NCBI GenBank assembly: GCA_964637955.1
Contig: CAZWXQ010000003.1
Span: 223,154 to 287,153 of the forward strand
Source of the DNA: an uncultured Gammaproteobacteria bacterium
GTDB lineage: Bacteria; Patescibacteriota; Microgenomatia; Levybacterales; UBA12049
Length of the DNA: 64,000 nt
Direction: 5' to 3'
In this document: one piece after another, positions 16,682 to 57,952 of the stretch
How the letters are laid out: every line of letters starts with the position of its first letter
Numbering within the stretch: the stretch's first letter is position 1
The notes under the pieces: generated by a model
What the model was told of the DNA's origin: nothing
What the model saw: only the letters and a program-made list of their open reading frames with translations
Databases searched by the model: none
Made by a program: the position numbers and the translations under genes

Positions 16682-17920
16682 ATGTTGATTGACATTATAG
16701 GTTTTGATAAAATTCCGTCCATGAACATAGAAGCAGGTCCAAATATTGGTAGTTGGGAAAGTTACGGTGGGGGAGTTTTTAGAAGAGAATCAAGTTTCCC
16801 TGATGGTAAAAGAGTATTAGAGAAAAAGATTACGACTGGATTTAAAAAAGAGTCGAGGCAAGAAACTTATCCAGATGGAATGGAGAGATTTTCAAGTTTT
16901 ACTGACAGGGAAGAATTCCTTAAAAATATTGGAAGCGTTGCTTTACTTGAATCTATTGCTCCACCTGTAGAAATAAGATATCAATTTGACGGGACCCAAG
17001 TTTCACTATTTTTTTCTGATGATGGCCAAACACATATCTTGATGTCTTTTGGTGAGTTTGGTACTTCCTGGGTGAGTAGAAATCATTCTACTTTTATATA
17101 TGCGAATTATGATACTGAAGGTAAAATAGCGAATTTGTCATTAAAAACAGACGAGATTAAAGAAAAAATAGAGCATGAAGAATTTGATGATTCTTATGCT
17201 GCACTTCATGAGCTCATGTCATATATCGACCATGATCTAGATGAATATTCGGGTATAATACAGGGTGGTATTATTCATCTAAATGAGCAGATAGAAAGAT
17301 TTTCGAGTGATCAAAATACTCTAGATTTTCTGAGGGGCTTTAGCTCTATTCTTTACGAGAGAGTTTTAGATATGATTGATGACCCAATAGAACGAGAGAA
17401 AGCAGACGTAAAGCTTAAAAAAATTGGACTGGAAGATGATATTTTATATCGTTTGCTTGTAGAGGCAGACCCAGGAGAAACAATAAGTAGAAAGGCATTA
17501 GAGGATATAGAAAGTGGAGAATTTATAAAAGATATTATAAGTAGTTCAGTAGATGTTGCTTCAAGATCAAATCGTTTTTATTCGAAACGGAGAGTGTCGA
17601 TAAATGTGTCAAATGAGAATGAATTTACATATCGAGAAACAGAACTTGATTCAGAAAAAGAACTCGAGGGCTATGCGCTAGTAGCTGAAGATAAATTTGA
17701 GTGGGATGAAGTTATTAAAAGTCAGGATATGGAAATAAGTTTTAGTATAAACGAGAATATGCTTAAGATTTTATGGAAAAGAAGTGATAGGCAGGTGTAT
17801 ATGGCAGAGATTCCATATAAATTAACTGATAAAAATGCATATAAAATAGCGAAGGATCCAGATGCAGACTTCAGGGTAGTAAGAGATCTAATTCCAGCTA
17901 GTCTTCAAAAAGTAGTTTAA
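16682..17920 (+). CDS. Hypothetical acidic soluble protein
   Basis: It is a 412 aa ORF with no recognisable motif. An alternative leaderless start at 16721 (MNIEAG) sits 7 nt after a TTGATT-N17-TAAAAT promoter-like element. Confidence 0.5.
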   Translation: MLIDIIGFDKIPSMNIEAGPNIGSWESYGGGVFRRESSFPDGKRVLEKKITTGFKKESRQETYPDGMERFSSFTDREEFLKNIGSVALLESIAPPVEIRYQFDGTQVSLFFSDDGQTHILMSFGEFGTSWVSRNHSTFIYANYDTEGKIANLSLKTDEIKEKIEHEEFDDSYAALHELMSYIDHDLDEYSGIIQGGIIHLNEQIERFSSDQNTLDFLRGFSSILYERVLDMIDDPIEREKADVKLKKIGLEDDILYRLLVEADPGETISRKALEDIESGEFIKDIISSSVDVASRSNRFYSKRRVSINVSNENEFTYRETELDSEKELEGYALVAEDKFEWDEVIKSQDMEISFSINENMLKILWKRSDRQVYMAEIPYKLTDKNAYKIAKDPDADFRVVRDLIPASLQKVV

Positions 17921-17940
17921 TGCTATAATTTTAGGAATTC

Positions 17941-19146
17941 ATGAATAAGTCACTTTCTTGGTTTATTTCTCGCATCGCATTAATTATTTTTGCCTACATA
18001 ATTCTTTATTTTGGCCTGAATGGTTTGACTAGCACTTACAGAGAGGGTGATAGTATTAATTATCATATTCCGATCGCTGAAGCCTTTTTAAATGGAGACA
18101 TAGTTAATCCAGCAAATTTTCAAGCGGAAAGATTTCTCAAGTATTCACCTGGAAGTAGTGAGGCAGTTATAGCTGGATTAATGCTACTTAAGATTCCAAT
18201 AAATGTTTTTAATGTAATTGCAGTTATCGTTTTGTTTGGAGTTTGTTTCTTCACTGCTAGACGGTTTCTCATGGAAAAAGATTACGCGATAATTTTCGCA
18301 GGAAGTATAGTGACACTTCATACTATGACTCGATGGATAAATACCCAGGTTGTAGATATTTGGATAGCTATTTGGTTTTTTTTGGTTCTTGGTCTTTTAG
18401 AGAAGCCGGAAAAATCTATAAAGTATTTTTTATTCCTAGGTTTTGGAGCTGGAATGTTAATTGGATCCAAATATTCAGGGCCACTTTTTCTTTTGGTTTT
18501 AGGAATTTTTTATTTTAAGAAGATTCTAAAATTCATAAATTTAGAAAGAATAATAGCCTTTCTAATTCCATTTTCACTAGCAGGACTTACTTGGTATTTT
18601 AGAAACTTTTTAGTGACAGGAAATCCTATGTATCCTCAAGGATTTCTTATGTTTAAGGACGGAGGATTTAAAATTTTGAACATAAATGTTTGGCGGGCTA
18701 CATTTTTATATCCGAGCGGAATAAGTAACTTTATAAACGCCATAATTAGCGAGTTCGGCTTATGGTCAATTTCGATTTTTACTCCACTGTTATTGTTAAA
18801 TAAAAAAATCAGAAATACAAATTATGTAAGTTTGATTTTCATTGGAAGCTTCGTGTTTGCTATCTTCCTTTTTCTTCCATCAGATAGACATTATAATATA
18901 GCTGTATCAGTTTTCAGATATTCTTATCCAGCGTTTATTACATTTATTCTAGCGATATTTTTACTTGCTAAAAAGTTTAAAAAGGAAAATATACTTATTA
19001 TTTTCGCTCTCGCAAATATGATTATAATTCCAGAGCTAGCATATAGACCAAAATTAATTTTTTTACTTTTGCCAATAGTTTTTATAGTTTTTTATGAAGA
19101 TGAAGTGGTGAAATTTATTAAAGGTAAAGCTCGGCAAGTAAATTAA
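17941..19146 (+). CDS. Polytopic membrane protein, putative GT-C-like glycosyltransferase
   Basis: It is 401 aa with at least 9 TM helices and a first-loop YREGDSINYH acidic motif. It converges on the polyprenol-P sugar synthase gene. Confidence 0.45.
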   Translation: MNKSLSWFISRIALIIFAYIILYFGLNGLTSTYREGDSINYHIPIAEAFLNGDIVNPANFQAERFLKYSPGSSEAVIAGLMLLKIPINVFNVIAVIVLFGVCFFTARRFLMEKDYAIIFAGSIVTLHTMTRWINTQVVDIWIAIWFFLVLGLLEKPEKSIKYFLFLGFGAGMLIGSKYSGPLFLLVLGIFYFKKILKFINLERIIAFLIPFSLAGLTWYFRNFLVTGNPMYPQGFLMFKDGGFKILNINVWRATFLYPSGISNFINAIISEFGLWSISIFTPLLLLNKKIRNTNYVSLIFIGSFVFAIFLFLPSDRHYNIAVSVFRYSYPAFITFILAIFLLAKKFKKENILIIFALANMIIIPELAYRPKLIFLLLPIVFIVFYEDEVVKFIKGKARQVN

Positions 19147-19816
19147 AAATAAGTTTAATCCCAGTAATGGTATGAAGCTTACTCTTGCCCCATTTTCTGG
19201 CGTTTTCGCGAGTAGGAACTTCCATAAGTCTATATTTTTTCTTCAGGCATTTGACCACAAATTCCTGTTCTATATCAAAACCGTCTGCTTTAAGGTCTAG
19301 TTTTAGAGCCACAGATTTTTTGACAGCGCGAAAGCTAAAAAGCACATCGCTATAACCAGTGTTAAACCTTTTGTTTACCAGATAGGCAAGGAAATCTGCG
19401 CCGCCTGATCTGGCGATTCCCCAGAAGTCCATGTTTAGATCATAGCTTCCGCCAGTGCGCCTCGAACCAATCACGGCATCTGCTTTATCTTGAAAAAGGG
19501 GATTTAATAAAGAAGGAATTTCTTTTTCATTATGTGATCCATCAGCGTCAAAGAACAGAAGATATGGATTCTTGGCTTTTTTAATTCCAATGCGCACTGC
19601 GTCTCCGCGACCAACACCATTATCTAGAATATAGTGAGCTCCAAACTTCTTTGTAATTTCCTTCGTAGAGTCCGTAGAATGCCCATCAACGACGATTATT
19701 TCGCTTCCGTATGGCTTTACACTTTTCAGTATTCGAAGCAGCCCTTCGCCTTCATTACGTGCTGGGATAATTACTGTAACTTTTGATTTATTAAAACGAG
19801 TCGCTTTTGTTGCCAT
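19118..19816 (-). CDS. GT2 polyprenol-monophosphate sugar synthase (DPM1/GtrB-like)
   Basis: VTVIIPARNEGEGL...IIVVDGHSTDSTKEI matches this family. Length is 232 aa. Confidence 0.75.
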   Translation of the reverse strand: MATKATRFNKSKVTVIIPARNEGEGLLRILKSVKPYGSEIIVVDGHSTDSTKEITKKFGAHYILDNGVGRGDAVRIGIKKAKNPYLLFFDADGSHNEKEIPSLLNPLFQDKADAVIGSRRTGGSYDLNMDFWGIARSGGADFLAYLVNKRFNTGYSDVLFSFRAVKKSVALKLDLKADGFDIEQEFVVKCLKKKYRLMEVPTRENARKWGKSKLHTITGIKLIFNLLAELYL

Positions 19817-19868
19817 TACAAGCTATTCTATGAAATTTAAATCAAAAGGGCAATATAAGTTTTGATGT

Positions 19869-19877
19869 TGATATAAT
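19869..19877 (+). promoter_or_regulatory. Extended -10 promoter element (TGaTATAAT) 4 nt upstream of the ATG-ATG start
   Basis: TGATATAAT spans 19869-19877. The ORF starts at 19882/19885. This implies a leaderless transcript. Confidence 0.4.
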
Positions 19878-19881
19878 ACAC

Positions 19882-20397
19882 ATGATGAACAAGCAGAAGA
19901 CTGCATACTTGAATATTTGGGAATATCCATCAAGGCTTGATGATCCAATTCATTGGTATGCTAAAGCTTGGAGTTATGCTTCTACCTCTCACTATCTAAT
20001 GGTTCATTTTGAAAATATAAAAGATGGCGAAAAGCTAGAGGATGTAGGTCATTTATTTAACGCTATTCAAGCAGTACCTTTTATAACAGGAATAGCAATA
20101 GAATTATTTATGAAAGGTTATCTTGTGTTTCAAGGTGTCGATTCTGATGAGCTAATGAGTGAGTACAGGCATAATCTTAAAAAAATTCGACAAAAATGCT
20201 GCACATACGATGATAAAAGATTTTTAAATCGCGAATTGATATTCTTCACTGATAAGCTTGGAGAGCAAATAATGAGTAAAGGGGGAATTAGATATCCTGA
20301 TAAGCTCAATACTGGCGTATACTTTGAAGATTTTAATATTGCTTTAATTACTTTAGAAAAAATTACTACAGAAATTTCTTCTGACGTAGTTAAATAA
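19882..20397 (+). CDS. Hypothetical protein
   Basis: It is a 171 aa ORF with higher GC than the flanks. It has its own promoter and no recognisable domain. Confidence 0.5.
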   Translation: MMNKQKTAYLNIWEYPSRLDDPIHWYAKAWSYASTSHYLMVHFENIKDGEKLEDVGHLFNAIQAVPFITGIAIELFMKGYLVFQGVDSDELMSEYRHNLKKIRQKCCTYDDKRFLNRELIFFTDKLGEQIMSKGGIRYPDKLNTGVYFEDFNIALITLEKITTEISSDVVK

Positions 20398-20488
20398 GTA
20401 TCTCTAAGTTAGCAAAAGTTGTAAATTTAATTTCTATATTTGCAGCGTTCGATGACTTTGATTTTGATAAGTTTGGTAAGATAAGAGA

Positions 20489-21535
20489 ATGGATGAAATA
20501 GTTGTTTCAGAGCCTTCAGGAGAACTTCCCATATCCGGTCAAAAATTAGGAATGATTGTGAGCGCTATGGAATCTTCAGCGCTTGTGGTTTATGATAGTG
20601 CGCCTGGTCAACAAATCCTAGAAGGAGATATTGATGGATTGGGTTTTAGAGTAAGAATGCCACATCTGAGAAAAGGAAAGCATGCAAATGTAGGAATTGT
20701 TGATATTAATGATGTCGATGGTAGTGTTTATTCATTTGTTTTAAGAAATAAATCTCATGATGCGAAGAAACATCAGGAAATAGTTAAAAATCATCCAGGA
20801 GTTAGAGGTTTACTGCCAAGGCAGTACGACATTGTTGGGGACTGGGTAGTTTTGGAAAGGTTGCAAGGGTTAGAGCTAGAAGAATTATTAGATAGAATGG
20901 ATACGGATTCTGATTTTGTGGTTAAGTACGCAGAAGAAGCCTGGAGTACAATTCAATCAGTTTTGGGAGAGGGACTGGAAACACAAGATGTTAGATTTGC
21001 AATCGGTCATAATGTTATGGTTAATCCTGAATCTGCAAAGGTAAGACTGATTGAGCAAACTTCTCTCTCAAAGTCGCCAAGAGGTTATTCGGGAAATGAG
21101 AGATTAACGCGAATGCTGATGAATGAGCTGGAAGGTGCAAATGAATATTCTGATTCGCAGCTGCAGTTTTTGATTTCACTTTTTGGAAAAGCAATAGAAG
21201 TAAATGATCCAAATCAATTATTTGTGAGAGGAAGGGCAATTAAGAAAGGGCATCCTGATTTCGAAGATATTTGGAAGTCTTATTATGGAGGCAGCATGAT
21301 TCTTAAGTCCGAGGGAAATGATAAGCCTTGGTATTTAGAGCAGAGAACCACCGAGCCGCCAGAGACTCTTGGCTTTTGGGAACAAGGAGTTACAAGAACT
21401 TTTTCTCCTGCATTTTGGGATTCTGTTAATGCTGGTTCAGTTGAAGGATTGAGAGATGTATTGAATTCTGGAGCAGGTAGAGCTGAAATTACTGATCCTA
21501 ATGACTTTAGGAGTAGACCTATTTTAATTATTTAA
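20489..21535 (+). CDS. Hypothetical protein with weak protein-kinase-like features (possible atypical or pseudo-kinase)
   Basis: It is 348 aa. The segment VVLERLQGLEL...AIGHNVMVNPESAKVRLIEQ resembles a kinase hinge plus catalytic loop, with His-Asn in place of HxD and IEQ in place of DFG. Confidence 0.45.
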   Translation: MDEIVVSEPSGELPISGQKLGMIVSAMESSALVVYDSAPGQQILEGDIDGLGFRVRMPHLRKGKHANVGIVDINDVDGSVYSFVLRNKSHDAKKHQEIVKNHPGVRGLLPRQYDIVGDWVVLERLQGLELEELLDRMDTDSDFVVKYAEEAWSTIQSVLGEGLETQDVRFAIGHNVMVNPESAKVRLIEQTSLSKSPRGYSGNERLTRMLMNELEGANEYSDSQLQFLISLFGKAIEVNDPNQLFVRGRAIKKGHPDFEDIWKSYYGGSMILKSEGNDKPWYLEQRTTEPPETLGFWEQGVTRTFSPAFWDSVNAGSVEGLRDVLNSGAGRAEITDPNDFRSRPILII

Positions 21536-21580
21536 ACAAAGCTAGGAAAATTAATTTTTGTGTTTGCACGTTCGATAATG

Positions 21581-21609
21581 TTGACACTGGCTTTTGAAGT
21601 GATATAATC
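21581..21609 (+). promoter_or_regulatory. Sigma70-type promoter, TTGACA-N16-TATAAT, 10 nt upstream of the ATG at 21619 (leaderless)
   Basis: TTGACA spans 21581-21586 and TATAAT 21603-21608, read directly from the sequence. Confidence 0.5.
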
Positions 21610-21618
21610 CCCGTTAAT

Positions 21619-22227
21619 ATGTTAAATCCAGATAAAAGACCCATGCTTGGCGCAGCGATTGTATTAGGCACCTTTGCTGTTTTAGGAGGAGGAATAGCAG
21701 CAAATAACATTGGAGATTTTTATAGAAAAGCAAGCGAAAGACGAGCTGCAGAAGAACAATCTAAAAGAAATGAAGAACAGGCTTGGCTTACACGGGTCGC
21801 AAGCGACCGTCTAGGTGAATGGGGGCTTACTGGAGAAGTGACCGTAACAGGAGGACCAGAGGTTGTAGTCCAAAAAAATGAGGATGGTTCTGAAATTCTC
21901 ATGATTAATTTCACTTGGCTTGATCCTGATGGAGAAACAAGTCATTTTGCATCCTTACATCCTAGAGCAACAAAAATAGATGTAGTTAAATCTGAAGATC
22001 CTCAAGCTGAATCAACTATGGAAGTAGACTTTGAAGATTTGTCAGGTCTAGGATATAACATAGCACTCGCCGACACATACGAGATTATGGGTGAATATAG
22101 GGAGCCGGAATATCCATTGGAGGCTTTTTCATCAAGAGTTACTTTTAATTTGAATCCAGTTGATCTCCAAGCTTTTAATGATTCGCTTGGAGCACAGCCT
22201 CTTCAAGATCCATCAGTAAATTCATAA
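21619..22227 (+). CDS. Hypothetical membrane-anchored protein
   Basis: It is 202 aa with an N-terminal TM or signal anchor (MLGAAIVLGTFAVLGGGIAA) and an acidic C-terminal domain. Confidence 0.5.
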   Translation: MLNPDKRPMLGAAIVLGTFAVLGGGIAANNIGDFYRKASERRAAEEQSKRNEEQAWLTRVASDRLGEWGLTGEVTVTGGPEVVVQKNEDGSEILMINFTWLDPDGETSHFASLHPRATKIDVVKSEDPQAESTMEVDFEDLSGLGYNIALADTYEIMGEYREPEYPLEAFSSRVTFNLNPVDLQAFNDSLGAQPLQDPSVNS

Positions 22228-22282
22228 AGTTCATTTGTTTGATTACTCCGTTTCTTATATTGGTGATTGTATACGTTTTTAA

Positions 22283-22311
22283 TTGATTTGTAGCTATTTT
22301 ATGGCTATAAT
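22283..22311 (+). promoter_or_regulatory. Sigma70-type promoter, TTGATT-N17-TATAAT, 8 nt upstream of the ATG at 22320 (leaderless)
   Basis: Read directly from the sequence. Confidence 0.45.
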
Positions 22312-22319
22312 CCATTCTC

Positions 22320-23786
22320 ATGTCGCCAGAACGTCAAATGTCAGATAAAAGCAGAAGGTATAGAGAAAGAGATGCTCGCTTAGGGATTGATCGGAAATGG
22401 CCTGAAGACAAGCCGCCTGGAAAATTTGTAGGTGATCTTTTAGGTTGGGATCAAGAAAAATTTACTGGGCCTGCAAGAGGTTTAGATCGGGCTGTGGAAA
22501 GGGCGCAGAATTTCGAACTTTGGAGTCCCGAAATTGAAGAAAGAACCTTAAGATTTGCGACATCTTTCGGGCTTTTATATGCAGAAAATTATCTTCAAGC
22601 TGCAAATAATATAAGAATTTTGGATGGATTAAGAGAGGCTCCAGTCAATCACCAAGCCCAAGATACCCTGTATGAAGTCTCACTTGATGCATATAGAACT
22701 TTAAAAAGAAAAGCAGGTCAGTTTTTCTTAAAATCCTATCCTGCTATGATTAAGCTTGGTCAAGATCCACATCAATATTTAGCTAGGGTTCAAAGTGCTA
22801 AAAGCGCTGGAGGAAGTTTGTTTGCTGCAAAAGTTGCCACATATTTACCAGACGTAATTGGAAAGGGTGGAAATCCAGATGAATTTAGCGCTGCTGCTTT
22901 AGCTGTTAGGCATGACGTTTCTTTTAAAACATCTTCGTTATTTATGTCACTTGCATCTGAAGTAGCTAGTGAAGGTGAAGGAAGGATGTTTGATTTTAAA
23001 GATAGAGTGATAGAAAGCGCAGAAGTATTGGGACCTGAAACTACTGCCTGGGCTCTGCCAGCATTTGTTTATCTAGAGCATCGAGCAGGAGTAAATAGCG
23101 CACAAACTCAAGCAGAAATCGCAGAAATAATTAAGCAAAAAGGAGATAAAGCTGCGCAGTGGTATATCGCGGGACTCAGGCGTATTGGAGGTGCAATGAT
23201 AAACCCTGATGACGACCCAAGTAAATATAGACGTAGATTAGAGCATCCTGAGGATATTATTCCTACTGTGCAAACGCTTGAAGATTTTAAAGCAGTCTAT
23301 CCGCAGGTTTTAGATCGGCTTGGAATTACCGCTGCATCTTTTTTCTCACGTACAGTGGAATTTACTGACCCAGCTTCTTATATGGATGCTATGGTATATG
23401 CTCAAGGAGTAATAGGCAAGCCATTATTTGATAAAGCATTATGGGCAATCATAAGATCTTCTAAAGGGGCTTGGAATCATGGTGAAGCCACAAGCGCTTG
23501 GATGATGTTTAATCATTTAGTTAGTAAATATAGGAGAAATCCTGATGAGAAGTTTTCTGCACTTATGGATTATGCAGTTAAAACAGCAAGCTTTAAAGAC
23601 AGTCGACTTGGAACTTTATCTCCTCGTAGAAAAATGTCAGAAGAGCTACAAGCTAGATATGGATTTGAAGGATATAGTTCTGATTATGCCTCTACAGACG
23701 AAGGAGAAACAGAGCTATATAGAAAGTGGAGAGCCCCGCAACGTGAAGCAACTCAGAGATGGCTAGCAAGTCAAAATAAATCTTAA
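22320..23786 (+). CDS. Hypothetical protein
   Basis: It is a 488 aa soluble protein of mostly alpha-helical composition with no recognisable motif. Confidence 0.55.
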   Translation: MSPERQMSDKSRRYRERDARLGIDRKWPEDKPPGKFVGDLLGWDQEKFTGPARGLDRAVERAQNFELWSPEIEERTLRFATSFGLLYAENYLQAANNIRILDGLREAPVNHQAQDTLYEVSLDAYRTLKRKAGQFFLKSYPAMIKLGQDPHQYLARVQSAKSAGGSLFAAKVATYLPDVIGKGGNPDEFSAAALAVRHDVSFKTSSLFMSLASEVASEGEGRMFDFKDRVIESAEVLGPETTAWALPAFVYLEHRAGVNSAQTQAEIAEIIKQKGDKAAQWYIAGLRRIGGAMINPDDDPSKYRRRLEHPEDIIPTVQTLEDFKAVYPQVLDRLGITAASFFSRTVEFTDPASYMDAMVYAQGVIGKPLFDKALWAIIRSSKGAWNHGEATSAWMMFNHLVSKYRRNPDEKFSALMDYAVKTASFKDSRLGTLSPRRKMSEELQARYGFEGYSSDYASTDEGETELYRKWRAPQREATQRWLASQNKS

Positions 23787-30151: not shown

Positions 30152-30180
30152 TTGACAACAAATTTCTAGTTATTTATAAT
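30152..30180 (+). promoter_or_regulatory. Consensus sigma70 promoter TTGACA-N17-TATAAT, 8 nt upstream of the ATG at 30189 (leaderless)
   Basis: TTGACA spans 30152-30157 and TATAAT 30175-30180, with an exactly 17-nt spacer. Confidence 0.5.
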
Positions 30181-30188
30181 CCCAATCT

Positions 30189-30659
30189 ATGTCAGCATCT
30201 GAAAGACGATCAGCGGAAAGAGCTTGGAGGGATGGATTGCCCAGAGTGGAAGAAGTGGTAAGTCCAGCTCTTATAAGGTACTTAAGACAATCTGCTGTCG
30301 ATAGGTATGGCCACGCAGAAGAAAAAGCAGTTAAAGATTTTGCTCAAGCATTTCTAACAGATTTTGCAGGACATCCAAGAATTGAAGAGGAAGTTGCGCG
30401 ATTGGTTTTGCGTTCAGTAGTTCAAGGTCAGTGGGCAACAGTTGTCTCACTTAATCCTTATTCTGATTCGCGAGCTGATTATAATGCGCAGTTAATAGCT
30501 GAGGGTTATGGCTTATTAAGGCCTTTCAATTTTGGAGAAAGACAGGAAGATGTTGATCCTGTGAATGCACTTAGGCCGACAAGATTTTTATTGGAAGGTG
30601 TTGCGGCAAGATTAAATGGAGATATAGCAATAAAAGTAACTCCAGAAGGCCGACGCTAA
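30189..30659 (+). CDS. Hypothetical protein
   Basis: It is a 156 aa ORF, noticeably GC-richer than its surroundings. It sits between the atp operon and dnaE. Confidence 0.5.
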   Translation: MSASERRSAERAWRDGLPRVEEVVSPALIRYLRQSAVDRYGHAEEKAVKDFAQAFLTDFAGHPRIEEEVARLVLRSVVQGQWATVVSLNPYSDSRADYNAQLIAEGYGLLRPFNFGERQEDVDPVNALRPTRFLLEGVAARLNGDIAIKVTPEGRR

Positions 30660-33600
30660 ATCATTGATATTTTTTCAGCGAGGATGACGGGGCGGTCGTT
30701 TTTTGTATCAAGCTTTCCCTCAATAAGAACACAAGAATCTATCCCTATAAAGCTTTTATATTTCTCAAAAACCTTCGGGAAAACCACGCATTCTATAGTT
30801 GCACCGTTTTCATCAGCTATTGTAATGAATGACATTTCAGCTCCAGTTTTTTTAGTAAATATTTTGCGGTTTGTTTCAACGATTCCTCCAATCTTAACCA
30901 TTTTTCCCTCAACTTCTTCCTCAAGAGAAGTAATACTGTGAGTCGTTTGATCTTTAAGTGATAAGAGATTTTGTAATTGAGGATGGGAAGTGAGATAAAA
31001 ACCTAGGTATTCTTTTTCAAAAGCCAGTTTTTCATCGCTTGAAAAGTCAGCGACGCTGTTTGAGGGACTACTCATAGAGACGGGTGCATCAATTTCTCCA
31101 AACAGACTGTCTTGTCCTGAACTAATTTGTTTTTTTCTTTTACCGATTAGGTCTATGGTGTTTGAATAGTTTGCTAAAATTTCTGCTCGATTTATTCCAA
31201 ATGTATCCATGGCTCCAGCCTTAATAAGACTCTCCATAGTTTTTTTATTAATAGTTCCTAAATCCACTCTTTCGCAGAAGTCTTCGAAAGATTTAAAATC
31301 TCCTTTTTTGCGATTTTCAATGATGTTTTTAATAGCAGCTTCACCTACGTTTTTTATTGCAGAGAGTCCAAATCTTATTAATTTTCCTTCCTCAATAGTA
31401 AAGTCTTTATAAGATTTATTTATGTCTGGAGGTAGAACTGTGAGATTTAGTCTTTTACATTCTGAGATTGCCTGGGAAATTTTTTCGTTTTTCGCAGGTC
31501 CTGTGGTGCCGCGTGACTCAGCAGTGAGAAGCGCAGTCATAAACTCTACGGAATAATTTGCTTTAAGATAAGCTGTTCTGTATGCGATGGTTGCATAGCA
31601 CGCAGCATGGGCTTTATTAAATCCATAACCAGCAAATGGAGCAATGAGTTCAAATATTGATTCAGCTTTTTTTTGAGTAAGTCCTTTTTCAACTGCACCT
31701 TTCAAAAATTGCTCTTTTTGTTTTTTCATTTCAGCAGGAATTTTCTTACCCATAGCTTTTCGGAATTTATCTGCATCAAGCCAAGTGTATCCCGCAATTT
31801 CAATAGTGGTAAGAAGAACGTCATCTTGATACACAAGCATTCCGTATGACTGTTCAAGAGCTTCTTTTAGTCTTTTATCTGGGAGTTTGATTTTACTTGC
31901 ATCTCTTTTCCTTTCAATAAATTCCGGGATGTTTGCCATAGGACCCGGTCTATAAAGAGCCACCATTGCCATAAGATCAAAAATAGAAGTAGGACGAAGA
32001 TCTTTTATGTATCTTCTCATTCCTGCAGACTCAAGTTGAAATATTCCAGTGGTTTCTGCTTCAGAAAGTAGATCGTATGTTTTTTTATCATCAAGTGGAA
32101 CAGTGGAAAGATCGATCTCGATACCCAGATTATCTTTAATGAAATTTAAAGCCTCCTCGATAATGGTTAAGTTTCGAAGACCAAGGAAATCCATTTTGAG
32201 AAGTCCAACTCCGTCTTCCCCTACGTTGTACATATCATATTGGGTGATTATTTTATCTCCATTTGATTCTCTTTGAAGGGGAGTATAGTCAGTGATTGGT
32301 TTGTCAGCTATAACAACTCCTGCAGCATGGACGGAAGCATGTCTTGCTACTCCCTCAATTTTTTTAGAAAGATCTATAAGCCTTCTGGTTTCAGATTCTG
32401 TAGTATACGCCATGCGAAGTTCTGGGCTTTGTTCAAGCGCATTGTCTAAGGTCATTGCGTGACCTTGCCAGCCTGGTGGAATCATTTTGGAGATTCTGTC
32501 TGGGCCTGAATAAGGCATACCGAGAGTTCTTCCGGTGTCTCTGATTGAACCCTTTGCCTCCATGGTTCCAAAGGTGATGATCTGGGCGACTTTATCTAAA
32601 CCATATTTCTGTGTAACATAGGCGATTACTTCGTCTCGTCTCGTGTCTGCGAAATCAAGATCAATATCGGGAGCAGAAGGACGATCTGGATTTAAAAAAC
32701 GCTCAAAAGGAAGCTTAAAGAAAAATGGATCTACGTCAGTAATACTTAGTGCGTAAGAAACCAATGAACCTGCTGCGGATCCACGACCAGGACCAACGCT
32801 TATTCCTTGGGACTTGGCCCAGTTCACGAAATCAGCTACGATTAAAAAATAAGTTTCATATTTTTTCTTAAGAATAATTGAAAGTTCATATTCTGCTCTT
32901 TCCTTTTTTTCACTTGTAATTTCTCCATATCTACTTTTAATTCCTTCCATAACGAGTTTTGTAAGATAATCTCCACTTGATGTTCCATCTGGTACCTCAA
33001 AAACAGGCATGATCCATTTGCCAAGTGATATCTCAAGGTTGCACATTTCGGCAATTTTTACAGTGTTATTTATAGCTTCTGGAGTTTGGATAAAAAGACC
33101 AGTCATTTCTTCGGGAGATTTCATGTAAAAATCAGGCGAGTCAATCATGGAAAGTCTTCTTCCGGGAGTGGTTAGTGTTGTTTGAGTTTGAATACACAGT
33201 AGTACTTCTTGCGCTTCTGCATCCCCATTTTTAACATAGTGATTGTCGTTGGTTGCTACCAGAGGGATTCCAAGTTTTTCTGAAAGCTTTATGAGTTTTG
33301 TATTCAATTCATCTTGTTTTTTAACATTAAGATGCTTTTGCATTTCAAGATAAAAATGATCTTTTCCAAATATCTCAGATAGCTGTTGCGCTCTTTTTTC
33401 AGCTACTTCTTCGAGGTTTTCCAATAGTGGCTCTGAAACCCAGCCATTTACACATGCAGAAAGACAAATTAGTCCTTCATGATGTTCTTTTAGGAGTTCG
33501 ATGTCGCTTCTCGGCTTGTAATAATAGCCTTCAAGGTTTGATTTAGATATGATCCTCATAAGATTTTTATATCCAGTATCATCTTTAGCTAAAAGAATAA

Positions 33601-33883
33601 GATGGTTTGAGTCTGAATCAATTCCAGCTTCCTTGTCATGGCGGGATCTGCGAGCCATATAAATTTCGCATCCGATAATTGGTTTTATTCCAGCTTCTTT
33701 ACACGCTTTATAAAACTTAATTGCACCATATAGATTTCCATGGTCGGTGATAGCTAGGGAAGTCATGCCAAGAGATTTGGCCTGCGCCACCATATAGTCT
33801 ATCTTGCTAAGACCATCAAGAAGTGAATACTCAGAATGATTGTGAAGATGTACAAAATCAGCCATTAGATTCGCTTTCTCCAA
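30656..33883 (-). CDS. dnaE: DNA polymerase III alpha subunit
   Basis: The N-terminal PHP domain HLHNHSEYSLLDG is present. The length is 1075 aa, with conserved palm and fingers regions. Confidence 0.95.
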   Translation of the reverse strand: MEKANLMADFVHLHNHSEYSLLDGLSKIDYMVAQAKSLGMTSLAITDHGNLYGAIKFYKACKEAGIKPIIGCEIYMARRSRHDKEAGIDSDSNHLILLAKDDTGYKNLMRIISKSNLEGYYYKPRSDIELLKEHHEGLICLSACVNGWVSEPLLENLEEVAEKRAQQLSEIFGKDHFYLEMQKHLNVKKQDELNTKLIKLSEKLGIPLVATNDNHYVKNGDAEAQEVLLCIQTQTTLTTPGRRLSMIDSPDFYMKSPEEMTGLFIQTPEAINNTVKIAEMCNLEISLGKWIMPVFEVPDGTSSGDYLTKLVMEGIKSRYGEITSEKKERAEYELSIILKKKYETYFLIVADFVNWAKSQGISVGPGRGSAAGSLVSYALSITDVDPFFFKLPFERFLNPDRPSAPDIDLDFADTRRDEVIAYVTQKYGLDKVAQIITFGTMEAKGSIRDTGRTLGMPYSGPDRISKMIPPGWQGHAMTLDNALEQSPELRMAYTTESETRRLIDLSKKIEGVARHASVHAAGVVIADKPITDYTPLQRESNGDKIITQYDMYNVGEDGVGLLKMDFLGLRNLTIIEEALNFIKDNLGIEIDLSTVPLDDKKTYDLLSEAETTGIFQLESAGMRRYIKDLRPTSIFDLMAMVALYRPGPMANIPEFIERKRDASKIKLPDKRLKEALEQSYGMLVYQDDVLLTTIEIAGYTWLDADKFRKAMGKKIPAEMKKQKEQFLKGAVEKGLTQKKAESIFELIAPFAGYGFNKAHAACYATIAYRTAYLKANYSVEFMTALLTAESRGTTGPAKNEKISQAISECKRLNLTVLPPDINKSYKDFTIEEGKLIRFGLSAIKNVGEAAIKNIIENRKKGDFKSFEDFCERVDLGTINKKTMESLIKAGAMDTFGINRAEILANYSNTIDLIGKRKKQISSGQDSLFGEIDAPVSMSSPSNSVADFSSDEKLAFEKEYLGFYLTSHPQLQNLLSLKDQTTHSITSLEEEVEGKMVKIGGIVETNRKIFTKKTGAEMSFITIADENGATIECVVFPKVFEKYKSFIGIDSCVLIEGKLDTKNDRPVILAEKISMI

Positions 33884-34748
33884 TTGGCTTCGCTAATGCT
33901 GATGCAGCAGCTAATTGTGCTTGTTCTATGTTGTGACGAATTGTTTCTGCTTGAGCTGAATCTACAACTTGGTTTCTTCCCCCATTTTTACCTAGGTATA
34001 ATCTTTCATCGGCTACATGCAAAGAGTCTTCAAGTAATCTTTCGGGAGATCTTCTTTCATTGTCTTCATTGTTCATATTAATTTGTGTAATTCCTGCGGT
34101 CATAGTTACTTCTCTGTCTAGGCCACTTTTATCTCTAACGCTTTGAGGTAGGGATGCGCGTAATTCGTTCATTCTTACAGCTGCATCAGATTCGTTCATA
34201 CCTCGAAAGAGAACCAGTATTTCTTCTCCTCCCCATTTTGCAACTAAGTCGCTTGCTCTAACTCCATTCTGAAGAGTTCTTGCTACTGCAAGAAGAACTT
34301 TGTCGCCTGCTGCGTGTCCTTCTTCATCATTGACCAACTTAAATTTATCTACATCACACATAGCAACAGTTAAATCTTCTCCATTTGCGAGTGCAAGTCT
34401 AATTATTTGTTCAGCCATTTCTTGGCCTGCAAGTCTTGTAGGAAGCTCCATTACGGCATCAATCATTGCACCTTTTCTTTGCTCTTCTGCAAGTAAAGCT
34501 AATGCTTCAGCTGACTCTTCTTCTTCAATTTCACCAGCCCTATTTGCTCTAAGAATAGTTCTTATATTTGGCTTTCTTCTTTCGATTTGATCTTCAAAAG
34601 CTTGATCATCCTCACCGTTTTTGTATGCGACTCTTACTTGATCAGCTAGTGCAAGTACTTGACTGGTGGTTAATTCAATTGGGGGGATTGGTTCGATCGG
34701 ACTAAGAGCATCTGCTTGTTCTTCTGTTATTTCTCCTACTTCTGGCAT
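33858..34748 (-). CDS. GGDEF-domain diguanylate cyclase-like protein (A-site variant GGEEI, intact RxxD I-site)
   Basis: Conserved GGDEF-family blocks are VAMCDVDKFKLVNDEEGHAAGDKVL, VRASDLVAKWGGEEILVLF and ADERLYLGKNGGRNQV. The N-terminus is acidic with no sensor domain. Confidence 0.8.
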   Translation of the reverse strand: MPEVGEITEEQADALSPIEPIPPIELTTSQVLALADQVRVAYKNGEDDQAFEDQIERRKPNIRTILRANRAGEIEEEESAEALALLAEEQRKGAMIDAVMELPTRLAGQEMAEQIIRLALANGEDLTVAMCDVDKFKLVNDEEGHAAGDKVLLAVARTLQNGVRASDLVAKWGGEEILVLFRGMNESDAAVRMNELRASLPQSVRDKSGLDREVTMTAGITQINMNNEDNERRSPERLLEDSLHVADERLYLGKNGGRNQVVDSAQAETIRHNIEQAQLAAASALAKPIGESESNG

Positions 34749-34750
34749 AT

Positions 34751-36070
34751 TTATTTTAATTTCGAGAGCAAGCTCTCCTTAACTTTTCCTGAGTCGATTT
34801 TCTCAGGAAATTGGCGCATAACTTGGCCAACTAAGAACATAATAACAGTTTCTTTTCCGTTTTTGAAGTCAGTAACAGCCTTTTCATTTTCATTTATAAC
34901 TTTTTCAACAATTTCATTAAGTTTACTTTCATCTACATCTGCGACTTTTGTAGACTGAACTATTGTTTGTATTAATTGTGCAGGTAAAACATCTTCAATA
35001 TTTGTTTTTTTGTTAATTATTTGATTTGCAATTTGCTTAGGTTTTATTCCAAATTCTTTTCCGTCATTTACAGCTCTTTCGAAATAATCAGCCATAGATT
35101 TGTCTCGTGTCAAAATTTCAGCATCATATATTGGTAATTCATATTCATCTTGAAATCTTTTTGACTTAGTATCGGGTAGTTCCGGGATTCGAGACTTAAG
35201 GTCTGAAATTTGATCATCCGTAAATCTAAGCGGTGGGATGTCGGGTTCTGGAAAATATCTGTACTGCTCGGCATCTTCTTTAGATCTTTGTGAAACGGTT
35301 GAAGAGTTTGATTCAACATATCCTCGAGTTTCTTGAGCTGGCCTTTCGCTTCGATCAAGAATTTCTGCTTGTCTCTTGATTTCATATTCAATTGCTTTTA
35401 CTACGAAATTAAATGAATTTATATTTTTTACTTCTACTTTATAGTTTGGTAGTTCGGTTTGACCTTCATGACGAAGTGAAATATTTGGCTCAAGTCTCAT
35501 GTTTCCTTTTTCCATGTCAGCATCAGAAACATCAAGATAGCGAACGATTTGCTGAAGTCTTTGAAGATATTCTTTTACATCTTCTGGATTATCAAAATCA
35601 GGCTCAGTTACTATCTCTACGAGTGGAACTCCGGACCTATTAAAATCAATTAAAGATACTTTTTCGCCGTTTATAACTTCGTGGCTTAGCTTTCCAGTAT
35701 CTTCTTCCATATGGACGCGGGTTATGCCAATCTTCTTGCCGCTTGAAAGAGTCATATAGCCGTTTTTTGCAAAAGGGAGGTCATATTGACTGATCTGGTA
35801 TCCTTTTGCTAGGTCTGGATAAAAATAGTTTTTACGATCGAATTTGGAGAACAGATTTATCTCGCAGTTTAGTGCAAGTCCTATCATGATGCACCACTCG
35901 ATAGCTTTTTTATTTGGAACGGGAAGTGCACCTGGAAGTCCAAGACAAACTGGACAAGTGTGAGTATTTGGTTCTTGTCCAAAATAATCTGCAGAACAAG
36001 CACAAAACATCTTAGATTTTGTTTTAAGTTCTACGTGTACTTCAAGGCCTGTTACCAATGTGTACTTCAT
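34751..36070 (-). CDS. gatB: Asp/Glu-tRNA(Asn/Gln) amidotransferase subunit B
   Basis: The N-terminus is MKYTLVTGLEVHVELKTKSKMFCAC. Length is 439 aa. Confidence 0.9.
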   Translation of the reverse strand: MKYTLVTGLEVHVELKTKSKMFCACSADYFGQEPNTHTCPVCLGLPGALPVPNKKAIEWCIMIGLALNCEINLFSKFDRKNYFYPDLAKGYQISQYDLPFAKNGYMTLSSGKKIGITRVHMEEDTGKLSHEVINGEKVSLIDFNRSGVPLVEIVTEPDFDNPEDVKEYLQRLQQIVRYLDVSDADMEKGNMRLEPNISLRHEGQTELPNYKVEVKNINSFNFVVKAIEYEIKRQAEILDRSERPAQETRGYVESNSSTVSQRSKEDAEQYRYFPEPDIPPLRFTDDQISDLKSRIPELPDTKSKRFQDEYELPIYDAEILTRDKSMADYFERAVNDGKEFGIKPKQIANQIINKKTNIEDVLPAQLIQTIVQSTKVADVDESKLNEIVEKVINENEKAVTDFKNGKETVIMFLVGQVMRQFPEKIDSGKVKESLLSKLK

Positions 36071-36071: not shown

Positions 36072-36521
36072 TTATTCTTTTATTCTGTCTACTAGACCTC
36101 CTGTAAATCTTGCTTCGTAAATAAGCTTTCCGTTTCTTGTGATAGTTTCATGAATATTAAATTCCTCATCGTTTCCAGTCGCAATATTTTTATAAGAAAA
36201 TTCTCCTTGCGTGTGTGACTGTGGGCCTCTTAAAGATTTTGGTGCGAGATTTAAAACCTTTTTCAAGTATCCATAAACTTCAGCAAGATCGTGACCAGGC
36301 ATTACTGCGCCATAATAAACCATTATCCAGCAAGGCTTATCATCATAAGACACAATTTGTCTTCCGCCATAAGGTTCACCACCGAAGAAATTATCGTGAC
36401 TTCTGAACTTGTCTTTTTCATAAACAAAGGTCGTTGAGCCGTCATCTTCTTTTATTCCATCTGCGCCACTTGCATAGCCGTTTAGGTTCGCTTCAGCAAT
36501 AAAATCTGCAAGTCCTTTCAT
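36072..36521 (-). CDS. Hypothetical protein embedded between gatA and gatB
   Basis: It is a 149 aa ORF. It is tightly packed, 2 nt from gatB and 4 nt overlapping gatA. Confidence 0.5.
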   Translation of the reverse strand: MKGLADFIAEANLNGYASGADGIKEDDGSTTFVYEKDKFRSHDNFFGGEPYGGRQIVSYDDKPCWIMVYYGAVMPGHDLAEVYGYLKKVLNLAPKSLRGPQSHTQGEFSYKNIATGNDEEFNIHETITRNGKLIYEARFTGGLVDRIKE

Positions 36522-37939
36522 AGTTCAACCTCCTTTTTTCTCCAAACTTCATCTTGAGTTGTGCTCTCATAAATATTGGCAATTTGTATGATTTTTGATT
36601 CTCCCCACTGAGGTCCAATGATCTGCATTCCAATTGGTAAGTTTGAACTAGAAAATCCGACTGGAATATTTATGCCAGTGAGTCCTGCGATAGAGCTTGG
36701 TTCTACTAATATATCTGCAAGCTCACCAAACATTGATTGGCCTTCGCTTGCTCCAACAGGGAGTGCAAGGGTTGGGGAAGTGGGAGCAAGAATTGCATCT
36801 ACTTTTTCAAAAGCTTTTTTAAAGTCATTAATGATCACGGTTCTAACTTTGGAAGCCTTGTTGTAATATTGATCATAGTAACCAGAGGAAAGTGCATGAG
36901 TTCCAAACATAATTCTTCTCTTTGCTTCCTGACCAAAAGCATCTCTAGTATTTCCGTATCTAATGCCGTCATATCTTGCTAAATTTGAGCTTACTTCTGA
37001 GCGTTGAATGATGGTATAAACATCAATTGCATATTTTGGATCAAAAAGTTTAATGGTTTCAATTTTAAATCCTAATTTTTCAAGTTTTTTAACAGCTTCT
37101 TTAATTGATGCTGATAGTTCCTTGTCTACGCCGTTAAAATACTCTTCTGAAATTCCAAGGATTAAATCTTTATTTGAATTATTTATTGTTTTCAAATAAT
37201 CTTCAGGCTCGAGTGGAGAAGTCGTAGCATCCATATTGTCTTGCCCTGCGAGTATATTTAAGATTAGCGCTGAGTCTTCAACAGTTTTAGTAATAGGTCC
37301 AGGAGAGTCTAAACTCGATCCCATCGCTACTACACCATATCTACTAACTCTGCCATATGTAGGTTTGAGTCCTACGACCCCACACCACGATGCAGGTTGT
37401 CTTATAGATCCAGCTGTTTCGCTTCCAATTGCTGCAATCACTTGATTGGCTGCTACAGTTGCAGCGCTTCCTCCAGAAGAGCCTCCGGGAAGATAATCTG
37501 TGTTCCAAGGATTTAAAGTCGGACCAAAGTCAGATGTTTCCGTGCTGCTTCCATGTGCCCAAGCGTCCATGTTGGTTTTTCCAATCATAACCATTCCAGC
37601 ACTTTTAAGTTTACTAACCACTGTCGAATCAAAAGGAGGAATGTAACCATCTAAAACTTTTGCAGAAGCAGTCGTTCTTACGCCAATTGTTGAAAAATTA
37701 TCTTTTACTGCGATTGGAATTCCAAGAAGAGGAAGATCTTCACCTTTAGCTATTTGTTCATCGGCTTTTTTCGCGCTTTCAAGTGCAGAATCTTCGGTAA
37801 GAGTTACGAATACGTTAAGTTTGTCGTCAGTTGCATTTATCCTATCAAAACAAGCTTTGGTAAGCTCCACTGACGAAAACTCTTTTTTCTTTAGTCCTTC
37901 TTTTGCTTGAGCAATATTCAATTTATTAAGCATTTGCAA
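36518..37939 (-). CDS. gatA: Glu-tRNA(Gln) amidotransferase subunit A (amidase family)
   Basis: The amidase signature GGSSGGSAA and Ser-cisSer-Lys context are present. Length is 473 aa. Confidence 0.9.
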   Translation of the reverse strand: MQMLNKLNIAQAKEGLKKKEFSSVELTKACFDRINATDDKLNVFVTLTEDSALESAKKADEQIAKGEDLPLLGIPIAVKDNFSTIGVRTTASAKVLDGYIPPFDSTVVSKLKSAGMVMIGKTNMDAWAHGSSTETSDFGPTLNPWNTDYLPGGSSGGSAATVAANQVIAAIGSETAGSIRQPASWCGVVGLKPTYGRVSRYGVVAMGSSLDSPGPITKTVEDSALILNILAGQDNMDATTSPLEPEDYLKTINNSNKDLILGISEEYFNGVDKELSASIKEAVKKLEKLGFKIETIKLFDPKYAIDVYTIIQRSEVSSNLARYDGIRYGNTRDAFGQEAKRRIMFGTHALSSGYYDQYYNKASKVRTVIINDFKKAFEKVDAILAPTSPTLALPVGASEGQSMFGELADILVEPSSIAGLTGINIPVGFSSSNLPIGMQIIGPQWGESKIIQIANIYESTTQDEVWRKKEVEL

Positions 37940-38549
37940 AATTTATCCCCTCATATTCTTTTATAAAAAAATCTACTCCATCTGTTTTAATTTTAACGTA
38001 AGCAGAGTTAGTTACTGCACCGTGAATAAGTTGTTTGTAAGTTCCAATCCCAAGTTTTACAAGCACAGCTCTTAGAAATCCTCCATGCGAAACTACTAGT
38101 AAAGTTTTACCAGGATCTACGATAGCCATTTCTCTTATGAATGTCATAAATCTCATATAAATTTCTTCATCACTTTCCGTGTCGCCTTTATATTTGAATT
38201 TATAATGTTCTTCCTCCGATAAATCTTTTATTAGTTCATCCCATTCTCTAAAATTAATAGAGGGAGTTCCTTCAATTTCTCCATAAGTTCTTTCTCTCAG
38301 AAGTTGTGTTGCCTTAATTGTTAATTTATGTTCCTCGTTAATAATCTCAGCTGTTTTCATTGCTCTTCCTAAATCAGATGAAAAGATGTAGTCAAACTTA
38401 ATGTCTTTAAATTTTTTTGTCAAAGCTTTTGCTTGTTCTTCTCCTTTCTCGGTTAAGGGGGAATCGGAATGACCTTGAATAATGTGCTCTATATTCCAGA
38501 CAGTTTCGCCGTGTCTAATGATATAAATTGTTGTTAATTTGTTTTGCAT
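37926..38549 (-). CDS. Histidine phosphatase family protein (phosphoglycerate mutase-like)
   Basis: The RHGETVWN catalytic motif is present. Length is 207 aa. Confidence 0.75.
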   Translation of the reverse strand: MQNKLTTIYIIRHGETVWNIEHIIQGHSDSPLTEKGEEQAKALTKKFKDIKFDYIFSSDLGRAMKTAEIINEEHKLTIKATQLLRERTYGEIEGTPSINFREWDELIKDLSEEEHYKFKYKGDTESDEEIYMRFMTFIREMAIVDPGKTLLVVSHGGFLRAVLVKLGIGTYKQLIHGAVTNSAYVKIKTDGVDFFIKEYEGINFANA

Positions 38550-39172
38550 TAATCTATTAACTCTACTCCTTTCATGTCTTTTATATAAAAATCTATGCCA
38601 TCTGATTCAAGCTTAATATAAGCAGTATTATGGACTTTTTTTATTTTTTTGTGCGTAGAATATCCTAAGTGAATGAGTAGATTGTGCATAAGTCCACCGT
38701 GTGTTGTGATAAGAACTGTTTTCCCCATGTAGCCTATTGCTACTTCTCTCAGAAAGGTTATGAGCCTTGCAGAAACATCTTCCCAGCTTTCTACATTTTT
38801 ATACTTTTCATAATTTTCATCCTTTTTTCTTTCTTCCTCGGAAAGGGCACGCCACTGATCAAATTTAGTAAAGAAGTTTCGAGTAATTGTTCCCTCAAAT
38901 TCACCATAATTTAATTCACGTAAGATCTTGGTAGTCTCAATTGCTAATTCTTTTTCCAGTACAATAATTTCCGCAGTTCTTTTAGCTCTTAATAAGTCTG
39001 AGGAGAAAACTTTATCAAATTTTACATCTTTTAATTCTTTCTTTAATTCATGTGCCTGTTTTTCACCTTCTTCATTGAGAAGAGTATCAGTATGTCCTTG
39101 AATAATATGCTGAGCGTTCCAATCTGTTTCGCCATGTCTAACTACATATAGAGTTGTTAAATTATTATTCAT
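38549..39172 (-). CDS. Histidine phosphatase family protein (tandem paralogue)
   Basis: RHGETDWN is present. The start is probably the internal Met (MNNNLTTLYVV) at 39172 rather than 39202. Confidence 0.7.
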   Translation of the reverse strand: MNNNLTTLYVVRHGETDWNAQHIIQGHTDTLLNEEGEKQAHELKKELKDVKFDKVFSSDLLRAKRTAEIIVLEKELAIETTKILRELNYGEFEGTITRNFFTKFDQWRALSEEERKKDENYEKYKNVESWEDVSARLITFLREVAIGYMGKTVLITTHGGLMHNLLIHLGYSTHKKIKKVHNTAYIKLESDGIDFYIKDMKGVELID

Positions 39173-39173
39173 A

Positions 39174-39635
39174 TTATTCGCTAAAAAGTGAAAATAAAAC
39201 ATTATTTTTATAATTCGCGATTATAGATTTTATGTATCTTGATGTGTTTTCGGGAATATTGTTTAAATCTGTCCAAATCATGTCGTCACTTTTATTTTCG
39301 TTTGTAAGTTTTGGTTCACCTGTCCAATTTCTGGCTAGGAAAACTAAGTCTATATAATCTGCGTTTGTTTCTTTAGAAATTTCAGGAATAAATTTTCTAT
39401 GAACTACTTGAATTAATTCTAAATCTTTTTCAAAGACATTTAAATCTGATTCTTCTTTTGCTTCTCTGATTGCTGCTTCGATTGCCGATTCATTTTCCTC
39501 AAGGTGTCCTGCAGGTAGTCCATATTTCCCGTCTTGCCAGCCTGTATTTGCTCTTCGATACATTAATAATTTTCCTTCTTTAATAAAGAGTACGTAGACA
39601 GCACATCTGAGCATGAATCTTTTTTCCTCAGTCAT
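39174..39635 (-). CDS. NUDIX hydrolase
   Basis: The Nudix box is GHLEENESAIEAAIREAKEESDL. Confidence 0.8.
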   Translation of the reverse strand: MTEEKRFMLRCAVYVLFIKEGKLLMYRRANTGWQDGKYGLPAGHLEENESAIEAAIREAKEESDLNVFEKDLELIQVVHRKFIPEISKETNADYIDLVFLARNWTGEPKLTNENKSDDMIWTDLNNIPENTSRYIKSIIANYKNNVLFSLFSE

Positions 39636-54673: not shown

Positions 54674-54776
54674 TTATATAAATTCATACTTTAATAAATT
54701 CAGTATGACCCTTAGTTTTTCGCACATTCGATATTTTCAGTTCAACCCTGAGCAAAGTCGAAGTGGGTCGAGCGGG

Positions 54777-55721: not shown

Positions 55722-55723
55722 TT

Positions 55724-57951: not shown

Positions 57952-57952
57952 G

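Follow-up and report, generated by a model that had tools for sequence, protein, structure and literature searches.

The stretch of DNA analysed here comprises 64,000 nucleotides of contig CAZWXQ010000003.1 (assembly GCA_964637955.1), termed the window below, and harbors on its minus strand a small gene encoding a predicted diguanylate cyclase of 296 residues, in which a single GGDEF domain is the only recognizable catalytic unit. The gene is lodged in a string of housekeeping genes that run on one strand in the order gatA, DUF5680, gatB, the GGDEF gene and dnaE, and it is terminated by a TGA codon at 33858-33860. The open reading frame (ORF) is real and intact-looking, and a gene identical to it was predicted on L001, an independent contig from Logan (run SRR14271336). 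Since the GC content at its third codon positions (0.212) falls within the range of the window (mean 0.245, standard deviation 0.037), its codon usage is native, which argues against a recent import. The coordinates of the gene, its domains and its neighbors are collected in Table 1.

The assignment of the protein is founded on its match to Pfam PF00990 (E = 1.2e-28), which reached 100.3 bits (cut-off 23.8) and covered model positions 1-161 of 161, so that the complete GGDEF domain that had been proposed in the initial annotation of this DNA was borne out. The generic NCBIfam model TIGR00254 was likewise passed with 105.9 bits (cut-off 37.4), while none of the NCBIfam equivalogs (SiaD, PleD, DgcZ-like and others) came near its own cut-off with this protein. 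The closest solved structures by sequence are all diguanylate cyclases, with E-values down to 1.6e-18. Two further readings of the same annotation were also verified from the codons, namely an allosteric I-site of the RxxD type (RASD) placed exactly five residues (LVAKW) before the A-site, and an A-site that reads GGEEI, where G-G-E-E is present and the fifth position is occupied by isoleucine instead of phenylalanine.

Table 1. Features of the GGDEF gene, its product and its neighbors in the window (position 1 is the first nucleotide of the window)
Feature	Position	Strand	Basis
Predicted diguanylate cyclase gene, single-domain GGDEF, 296 residues	33858..34748	(-)	ORF list, Pfam, TIGR00254
GGDEF catalytic domain, residues 94-260, with D132/D134 (DxD), N140, H145, D149, K254 and R258	33969..34469	(-)	Pfam alignment
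Allosteric I-site RxxD, R164-A-S-D167	34248..34259	(-)	codons AGA GCA AGC GAC
A-site motif G173-G-E-E-I177	34218..34232	(-)	codons GGA GGA GAA GAA ATA
N-terminal module, residues 1-95	34464..34748	(-)	AlphaFold2 model, alignment with seven small GGDEF proteins
C-terminal extension, residues 263-296, helix predicted at 264-285	33861..33962	(-)	AlphaFold2, alignments
gatB/GGDEF junction: gatB TAA at 34751-34753, 2-nucleotide spacer, GGDEF ATG	34749..34753	(-)	junction sequence
GGDEF 3' end/dnaE start, most likely 8-nucleotide overlap, dnaE ATG at 33863-33865	33858..33865	(-)	junction sequence, relatives, gene call
gatB, upstream neighbor	34751..36070	(-)	GatB identity to metagenome-assembled genomes; Pfam GatB_N and GatB_Yqey on the L083 orthologue
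dnaE (DNA polymerase III alpha), downstream neighbor	30656..33865	(-)	Pfam on the identical L001 gene

The residues needed for catalysis were located by comparison with PleD. D327/D329 of PleD correspond to D132/D134, N335 to N140, H340 to H145, D344 to D149, E370/E371 to E175/E176, K442 to K254 and R446 to R258, and R359/D362 of the I-site to R164/D167; only two positions differ, with R366 replaced by K171 and F372 by I177. The equivalents of the metal ligands and GTP-binding residues (D132, N140, D149, K254 and R258) are thus all in place. GGDEF enzymes with an altered product exist, the Hypr GGDEF proteins being such a case, and the identity of the window protein to characterized cyclases does not exceed about 36%; accordingly, a Hypr-type production of cGAMP or c-di-AMP, or the release of linear pppGpG, was considered as an alternative. 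It is nevertheless regarded as very unlikely, because Hypr enzymes carry Ser or Thr at the position of PleD D344, whereas the window protein has an Asp there (D149). Both D149 and N140 are invariant in the subfamily described below, and the conserved RxxD I-site fits feedback by cyclic di-GMP (c-di-GMP).

At first sight the protein seemed to be an orphan. Beyond an exact copy, a word-indexed search of 5.8 billion protein clusters returned no protein of more than 41% identity, and whether the protein or the family profile served as the query, searches of this type yielded only generic GGDEF proteins and a single relative, P0209. This impression was overturned by an exhaustive phmmer search, which alone revealed a family of seven relatives (P0129, P0145, P0153, P0155, P0159, P0209 and P0257) of 265-294 residues, aligned over nearly their whole length including the N-terminus, whose genes sit downstream of gatB wherever the contig is long enough. 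They share with the window protein the length class, the N-terminal module, a GEITxEEA-like motif, the A-site GGEE[F/I/M] and the RxxD motif, and the window protein is set apart from them by an additional C-terminal helix and by K171.

A small single-domain GGDEF gene was found directly downstream of gatB in at least 13 Levybacteria- or Microgenomates-like genomes, and dnaE is the next gene in every contig apart from that of P0153, which breaks off before dnaE could be seen. Among the 15 closest species-representative genomes, eight (L002, L003, L004, L006, L007, L008, L012 and L013) contain a GGDEF ORF in this slot with 22-29% identity to the window protein, and Pfam confirmed the domain in all four of the ORFs that were submitted (L003, L006, L007 and L012). 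The order gatB-GGDEF-dnaE also occurs in L083, L086 and L087; in L083 the string reads PolX, LemA, M48, MurT, GatD, gatC, gatA, gatB, GGDEF, dnaE and atp, a core order that is shared by the window, with several extra genes along the string of the latter. The contig of P0153 (ENA ERZ27296333) even bears two GGDEF genes downstream of gatB, encoding 340 and 294 residues, which are separated by a gene for a 405-residue protein with weak cohesin and dockerin matches. The arrangement seems to be peculiar to these organisms, given that no bacteria outside this clade showed it when 80 gatB loci of varied origin were compared, and none of 80 generic GGDEF loci, retrieved as a negative control in a metagenome-contig scan with alignment A2, adjoins gatB or dnaE. 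Taken at the level of sequence comparison, the slot gene has therefore been inherited within a clade of Levybacteria-like Patescibacteria and is no accident of this genome, and the notion of an unexpected one-off was abandoned; the label "orphan" holds for the 64-kb window only, in which no partner gene was recognized, and fails for the family, since relatives keep a similar gene at the same place.

The remaining seven of the 15 closest genomes (L005, L009, L010, L011, L014, L015 and L016) have no GGDEF gene in the slot. The distance between gatB and dnaE is 70 nucleotides or less in L011, L014 and L015, and a search for GGDEF remnants in the empty gaps of L005, L009, L015, L016 and L017 gave no credible match. 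In L010 the slot is filled by an unrelated ORF. The latter (11332-11865) and an ORF of L004 (12119-12610) encode 163-177 residues and belong to no recognized family; the ORF follows the GGDEF gene in L004 and stands in its place in L010; their "GG...PRKDIDL" segment resembles a minimal nucleotidyltransferase motif, and neither Pfam nor PADLOC returned a match. It was also observed that the DnaE of L005 (1642-4215) aligns in two blocks, as residues 1-391 and 638-1067, with only approximately 100 nucleotides between them, so that the polymerase core seems to lack some 245 residues, owing to a deletion or an assembly problem.

The proteins of the slot have diverged widely. Their pairwise identities are 22-43%, compared with 64-77% for DnaE across the same genome pairs, and the distance matrices of the two proteins show no correlation (Mantel r = 0.14, p = 0.17). 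Two types were distinguished, namely type A, which includes the window protein and shares its N-terminal module, and type B, which has a shorter N-terminus. Because L083 carries a type A gene although its DnaE groups with the type B genomes, and because two GGDEF genes stand in tandem on the P0153 contig, the favored explanation of the two types is an old tandem pair of paralogues, of which different lineages have lost different members. The missing correlation with DnaE, together with the lack of close matches in the word-indexed search, could also be taken as the mark of a recent horizontal or decaying insert that has no function in this genome. Such an origin is most improbable, for the native codon usage, the intact frame and the full set of motifs all speak against it, the gene is wedged so tightly between its neighbors that no room is left for the ends of a mobile element, and the slot is similarly filled across the clade. 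Recent transfer was consequently rejected as the cause of the missing correlation, which is better accounted for by saturation and by the two old paralogous types.

Within type A, the alignment of the window protein with its seven relatives (A1, eight members) has an overall identity of about 30%, each relative being 28-32% identical to the window protein, and 27 columns are invariant, including nearly all catalytic and I-site residues. D132, D134, N140, H145, D149, K254, the G-G-E-E tetrad, R164 and D167 are unchanged in all members; the exceptions are R258, which is Lys in one member, and position 171, which is Lys in the window protein and Arg in the others. Outside its catalytic core the gene evolves fast. 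The initial annotation had raised the concern that the exchange of Phe for Ile at the A-site might affect activity. Since the fifth residue is Ile in four, Phe in three and Met in one of the eight members, and since 23 Ile, 18 Leu and 6 Met accompany 441 Phe among the 498 GG[DE]E motifs of the retrieved homologues (a sample biased towards the query), the exchange is, on this comparative evidence, ordinary natural variation, and the concern was not sustained. A literature search for GGEEI produced nothing relevant.

The fold was predicted by AlphaFold2 with the eight-sequence subfamily alignment as input. The model has a mean pLDDT (predicted local distance difference test) score of 85.6, and most of the GGDEF domain exceeds 90. 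Residues up to approximately 27 are acidic and mostly disordered, whereas three helices are predicted beyond them (28-45, 49-70 and 76-95), and the third enters the GGDEF domain as a stalk. Foldseek retrieved more than 40 solved cyclase chains with E-values of 1e-11 to 1e-15, root mean square deviations of about 2-4 angstroms and roughly 170-190 aligned columns, and the top matches were stalk-plus-GGDEF cyclases, i.e., a GCN4-WspR fusion, DgcR, SiaD (with SiaC) and DgcB (coiled coil). The statement that no sensor domain is present needs to be qualified in this light. A known sensor is indeed missing, and residues 1-95 of the window protein have no Pfam family match; the protein is, on the other side, not a bare catalytic domain, because these residues form a helical module that is common to the seven other GGDEF proteins of 265-294 residues.

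The module contains a weak SHOCT-like "GEITxEEA" motif near residues 71-80, and SHOCT-like motifs have been proposed as oligomerization modules. Sub-threshold matches were obtained for PF22746 in three of the eight subfamily members (best E = 4e-4) and for PF09851 in two of the eight (E = 0.012), while the N-terminus of the window protein itself has no Pfam match to this clan (PF09851/PF22746); a search with the profile against the PDB gave a weak match to GP23.1 (E = 0.14). These SHOCT-like similarities are treated as a lead and not as a finding. At the other end of the protein, a long C-terminal tail was otherwise seen in one relative only (P0153), and the two tails have no evident similarity.

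One of the closest known cyclases is SiaD of Pseudomonas aeruginosa (PDB 7e6g), which is of similar size (252-276 residues against 296) and also consists of an N-terminal helical stalk and one GGDEF domain with no classical sensor. SiaD was the best NCBIfam match (residues 82-261) and the third in the fold search. However, the score of the window protein with the SiaD model NF038266 was 111.5 bits against an equivalog cut-off of 290, the N-terminal regions are not alignable by sequence, the genomic context is wholly different, and none of the partners SiaA, SiaB and SiaC (a PP2C phosphatase, a kinase and a SiaC-like protein) was found in the window. WspR and DgcR, response-regulator cyclases that supplied the top two fold matches, have in common with the window protein a stalk helix that leads into a domain of the GGDEF fold and an RxxD I-site, through which they are subject to feedback inhibition; they differ from it in possessing a REC receiver, a domain that the window protein lacks. 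With PleD (Caulobacter crescentus, PDB 1w25 and 2v0n) the spacing of the I-site and the A-site is identical (RxxD, five residues, GGEE-), yet only the GGDEF part aligned with the PleD model NF007135 (98.8 bits against a cut-off of 474), and no Response_reg match was detected by Pfam, in contrast with the REC-REC-GGDEF architecture of PleD.

Expression of the gene would be tied to the surrounding string. Because the nearest Shine-Dalgarno-like sequence (AAGGAG) lies 26 nucleotides upstream of the ATG of the GGDEF gene, the latter is likely to be translationally coupled to gatB. On the distal side, an overlap of 26 nucleotides with dnaE had been claimed, which follows from the longest dnaE ORF, opening at TTG 33883. 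That TTG forms part of a Shine-Dalgarno-like GGAG located 12 nucleotides before ATG 33865, alignments with the DnaE proteins of all relatives begin at the residue specified by ATG 33865, and an independent gene call on L001 starts dnaE at the same ATG, giving 1069 residues and the same overlap with the GGDEF gene; for these reasons the overlap most likely amounts to 8 nucleotides. The product of the identical L001 gene matches PHP, DNA_pol3_alpha, finger, HHH_6 and tRNA_anti-codon in Pfam. From gatC through dnaE each junction overlaps or has a gap of at most 2 nucleotides, and no minus-strand terminator-like site was detected between gatC and dnaE, save for one within the 5' portion of gatC. 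The scan for promoters and terminators returned sites at or below the number expected by chance and was used only for the absence of a terminator across gatB-GGDEF-dnaE. Co-transcription of the GGDEF gene with the gatC-dnaE string is likely on this evidence, and its placement inside the gatCAB-dnaE string of an organism of the candidate phyla radiation (CPR) type, as originally described, is upheld by the same-strand order and the tight junctions.

Several insertions interrupt the string around these genes. The DUF5680 gene (36072-36521, minus strand) is inserted between gatA and gatB, overlapping gatA by 4 nucleotides and lying 1 nucleotide from gatB; homologues occupy the same gatA/gatB slot in L012 and L013, and a 23S_rRNA_IVP gene takes that place in another relative. 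Between gatC and gatA, a NUDIX hydrolase gene and two tandem His_Phos_1 paralogues (37926-39635, minus strand) follow one another with overlapping ends, and a His_Phos_1 gene is also found ahead of gatA on the P0153-bearing contig.

The persistence of the arrangement raises the alternative of a dedicated link, in which c-di-GMP or the protein itself would tune replication or the amidation of Asn/Gln-tRNA. Control of the cell cycle by c-di-GMP is known in Caulobacter, and such a link would be in line with the retention of the adjacency, with coding regions that overlap or abut, by at least 13 genomes. Against it, CPR genomes hold long co-directional strings of unrelated genes, the string of the window has itself taken in the NUDIX, His_Phos and DUF5680 inserts, and the slot is empty in close relatives with gatB-dnaE intact (L011, L014 and L015) and occupied by an unrelated ORF in L010. 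A dedicated link is hence held to be doubtful.

The GatB of the window is 60-69% identical to the GatB of Levybacteria/Microgenomates metagenome-assembled genomes (MAGs), and its DnaE is 64-72% identical to the DnaE of Levybacteria, Levyibacteriota or Microgenomates MAGs, so that the nearest genomes are Levybacteria/Microgenomates MAGs within the Patescibacteria group; the title "uncultured Gammaproteobacteria" on several of the best-matching records was treated as unreliable. The window has a GC content of 27-40% with tightly packed genes, and together with this kinship it makes the earlier guess of a reduced-genome organism a reasonable one.

Partners of a c-di-GMP circuit were sought throughout the window. 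Pfam analysis of its approximately 52 proteins detected no EAL, HD-GYP, PilZ or T2SSE_N/MshEN domain, and a crude six-frame motif regex likewise gave no EAL, HD-GYP, PilZ or MshEN, in agreement with the original remark that the first three are missing from the window. An Rfam scan found two tRNAs only and no c-di-GMP riboswitch, and the PADLOC defence models had no match at E <= 0.01. Thirteen ORFs of the window have no Pfam match, and they could hide an unrecognized effector.

Taken together, these observations point to an active, product-inhibited cyclase of the cytoplasm that would dimerize via its N-terminal helices and be expressed along with the housekeeping genes, an interpretation which we consider probable from the sequence and the predicted model. 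In the mechanism envisaged, two copies would pair through the N-terminal helices and the stalk, whereupon two GTP-loaded GGDEF domains could meet and form c-di-GMP. The product would then bind the RxxD I-site (R164/D167) and shut the enzyme down, by which the level of c-di-GMP would be capped. As no sensor is recognizable, the output would probably track the expression of the housekeeping string through the coupling with gatB and dnaE, and by analogy with the action of SiaC on SiaD, a partner protein on the N-terminal helices could modulate the cyclase.

A number of observations weigh against an active cyclase, and some of them favor a different role, namely that of a weak or dead GGDEF protein serving as a receptor or adaptor for c-di-GMP or GTP via its I-site or A-site, in which case the nucleotide sensed would come from elsewhere, the host cell included. 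The window protein is the most deviant member of A1 near the active site, with both K171 and I177, and the segment "DAVMELPTR" replaces the usual DxLTGLxNR, so that substitutions lie both by the A-site and in the DxLT turn. Degeneration is evident in some type B copies of the slot, with KQGDEL and RxxE in L003, GEKGDEF in L004, and the loss of one metal-site Asp and the His in L012. The slots of L005, L009, L011, L014, L015 and L016 were read as gene losses, and selection for catalysis would, in view of these losses and degenerate copies, therefore not be universal in the clade. Furthermore, the 64-kb window contains no c-di-GMP receptor, phosphodiesterase or other component of the circuit, and dimerization is argued from analogy and the weak SHOCT-like matches only. 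The receptor role is nonetheless rather unlikely for the window protein, because the known GGDEF domains of the receptor type mostly have a disrupted GG[D/E]EF motif or no longer possess the metal ligands, whereas here the metal-, base- and phosphate-binding residues are all present and invariant in the subfamily. The exchanges of Lys for Arg and Ile for Phe are moreover conservative, and Ile, Leu and Met recur at the fifth position. An active cyclase remains the preferred interpretation.

Elsewhere in the window, two large glycan-biosynthesis regions were noted (1-15100 and 51331-64000), which encode, among others, two long GT2-PMT_2 fusions (852 and 734 residues), more PMT_2 proteins, numerous sugar epimerases, a flippase and Wzy_C; the region 1-15100 is markedly AT-rich (27-31% GC). 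Six ORFs of 412, 401, 171, 348, 202 and 488 residues on the plus strand (16682-23786) have no Pfam match at E <= 0.001, and their run is broken only by a GT2 gene on the opposite strand. Convergent to dnaE and overlapping its 3' end by 4 nucleotides lies a 156-residue ORF (30189-30659, plus strand), for which neither a Pfam or PADLOC match nor a counterpart at the loci of the relatives was found. A perfect TTGACA-17-TATAAT consensus (30152-30180, plus strand) precedes the ATG of this ORF by 8 nucleotides, and the arrangement suggests that the transcript may be leaderless.

With regard to novelty, neither the GGDEF fold nor the motifs nor the architecture with a stalk is new. No earlier description appears to exist of the type A subfamily and its N-terminal module, of the slot that it keeps in the gatCAB-dnaE-atp string of Levybacteria-like genomes, or of the very high speed at which it diverges. 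A survey of the literature on c-di-GMP signalling in CPR bacteria, Patescibacteria or Saccharibacteria disclosed almost nothing, and nothing on the gatB-GGDEF-dnaE arrangement; diguanylate cyclase genes had merely been counted in ultra-small MAGs from groundwater (PMC9938205). Viewed against the subfamily, GGEEI and the missing sensor domain are normal for type A and give no sign of decay.

The most far-reaching proposal that can be attached to the locus is that these ultra-small Levybacteria have fixed a pared-down c-di-GMP synthase, devoid of any sensor, within the core string of gatCAB, dnaE and ATP synthase genes, and it is put forward as a speculation that we ourselves think unlikely. If it were true, and if neither phosphodiesterases nor receptors of a known type are encoded in the genomes, c-di-GMP would have to act through an effector of an unrecognized kind or on the host cell that carries these bacteria, and the very fast evolution of the protein outside the catalytic core would fit a role at the host interface of episymbionts. 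In any event, a positionally conserved and catalytically intact-looking gene in genomes of approximately 0.5-1 Mb offers a compact test case, which makes concrete the question of whether ultra-small, host-dependent bacteria operate a c-di-GMP circuit, and via which receptor.

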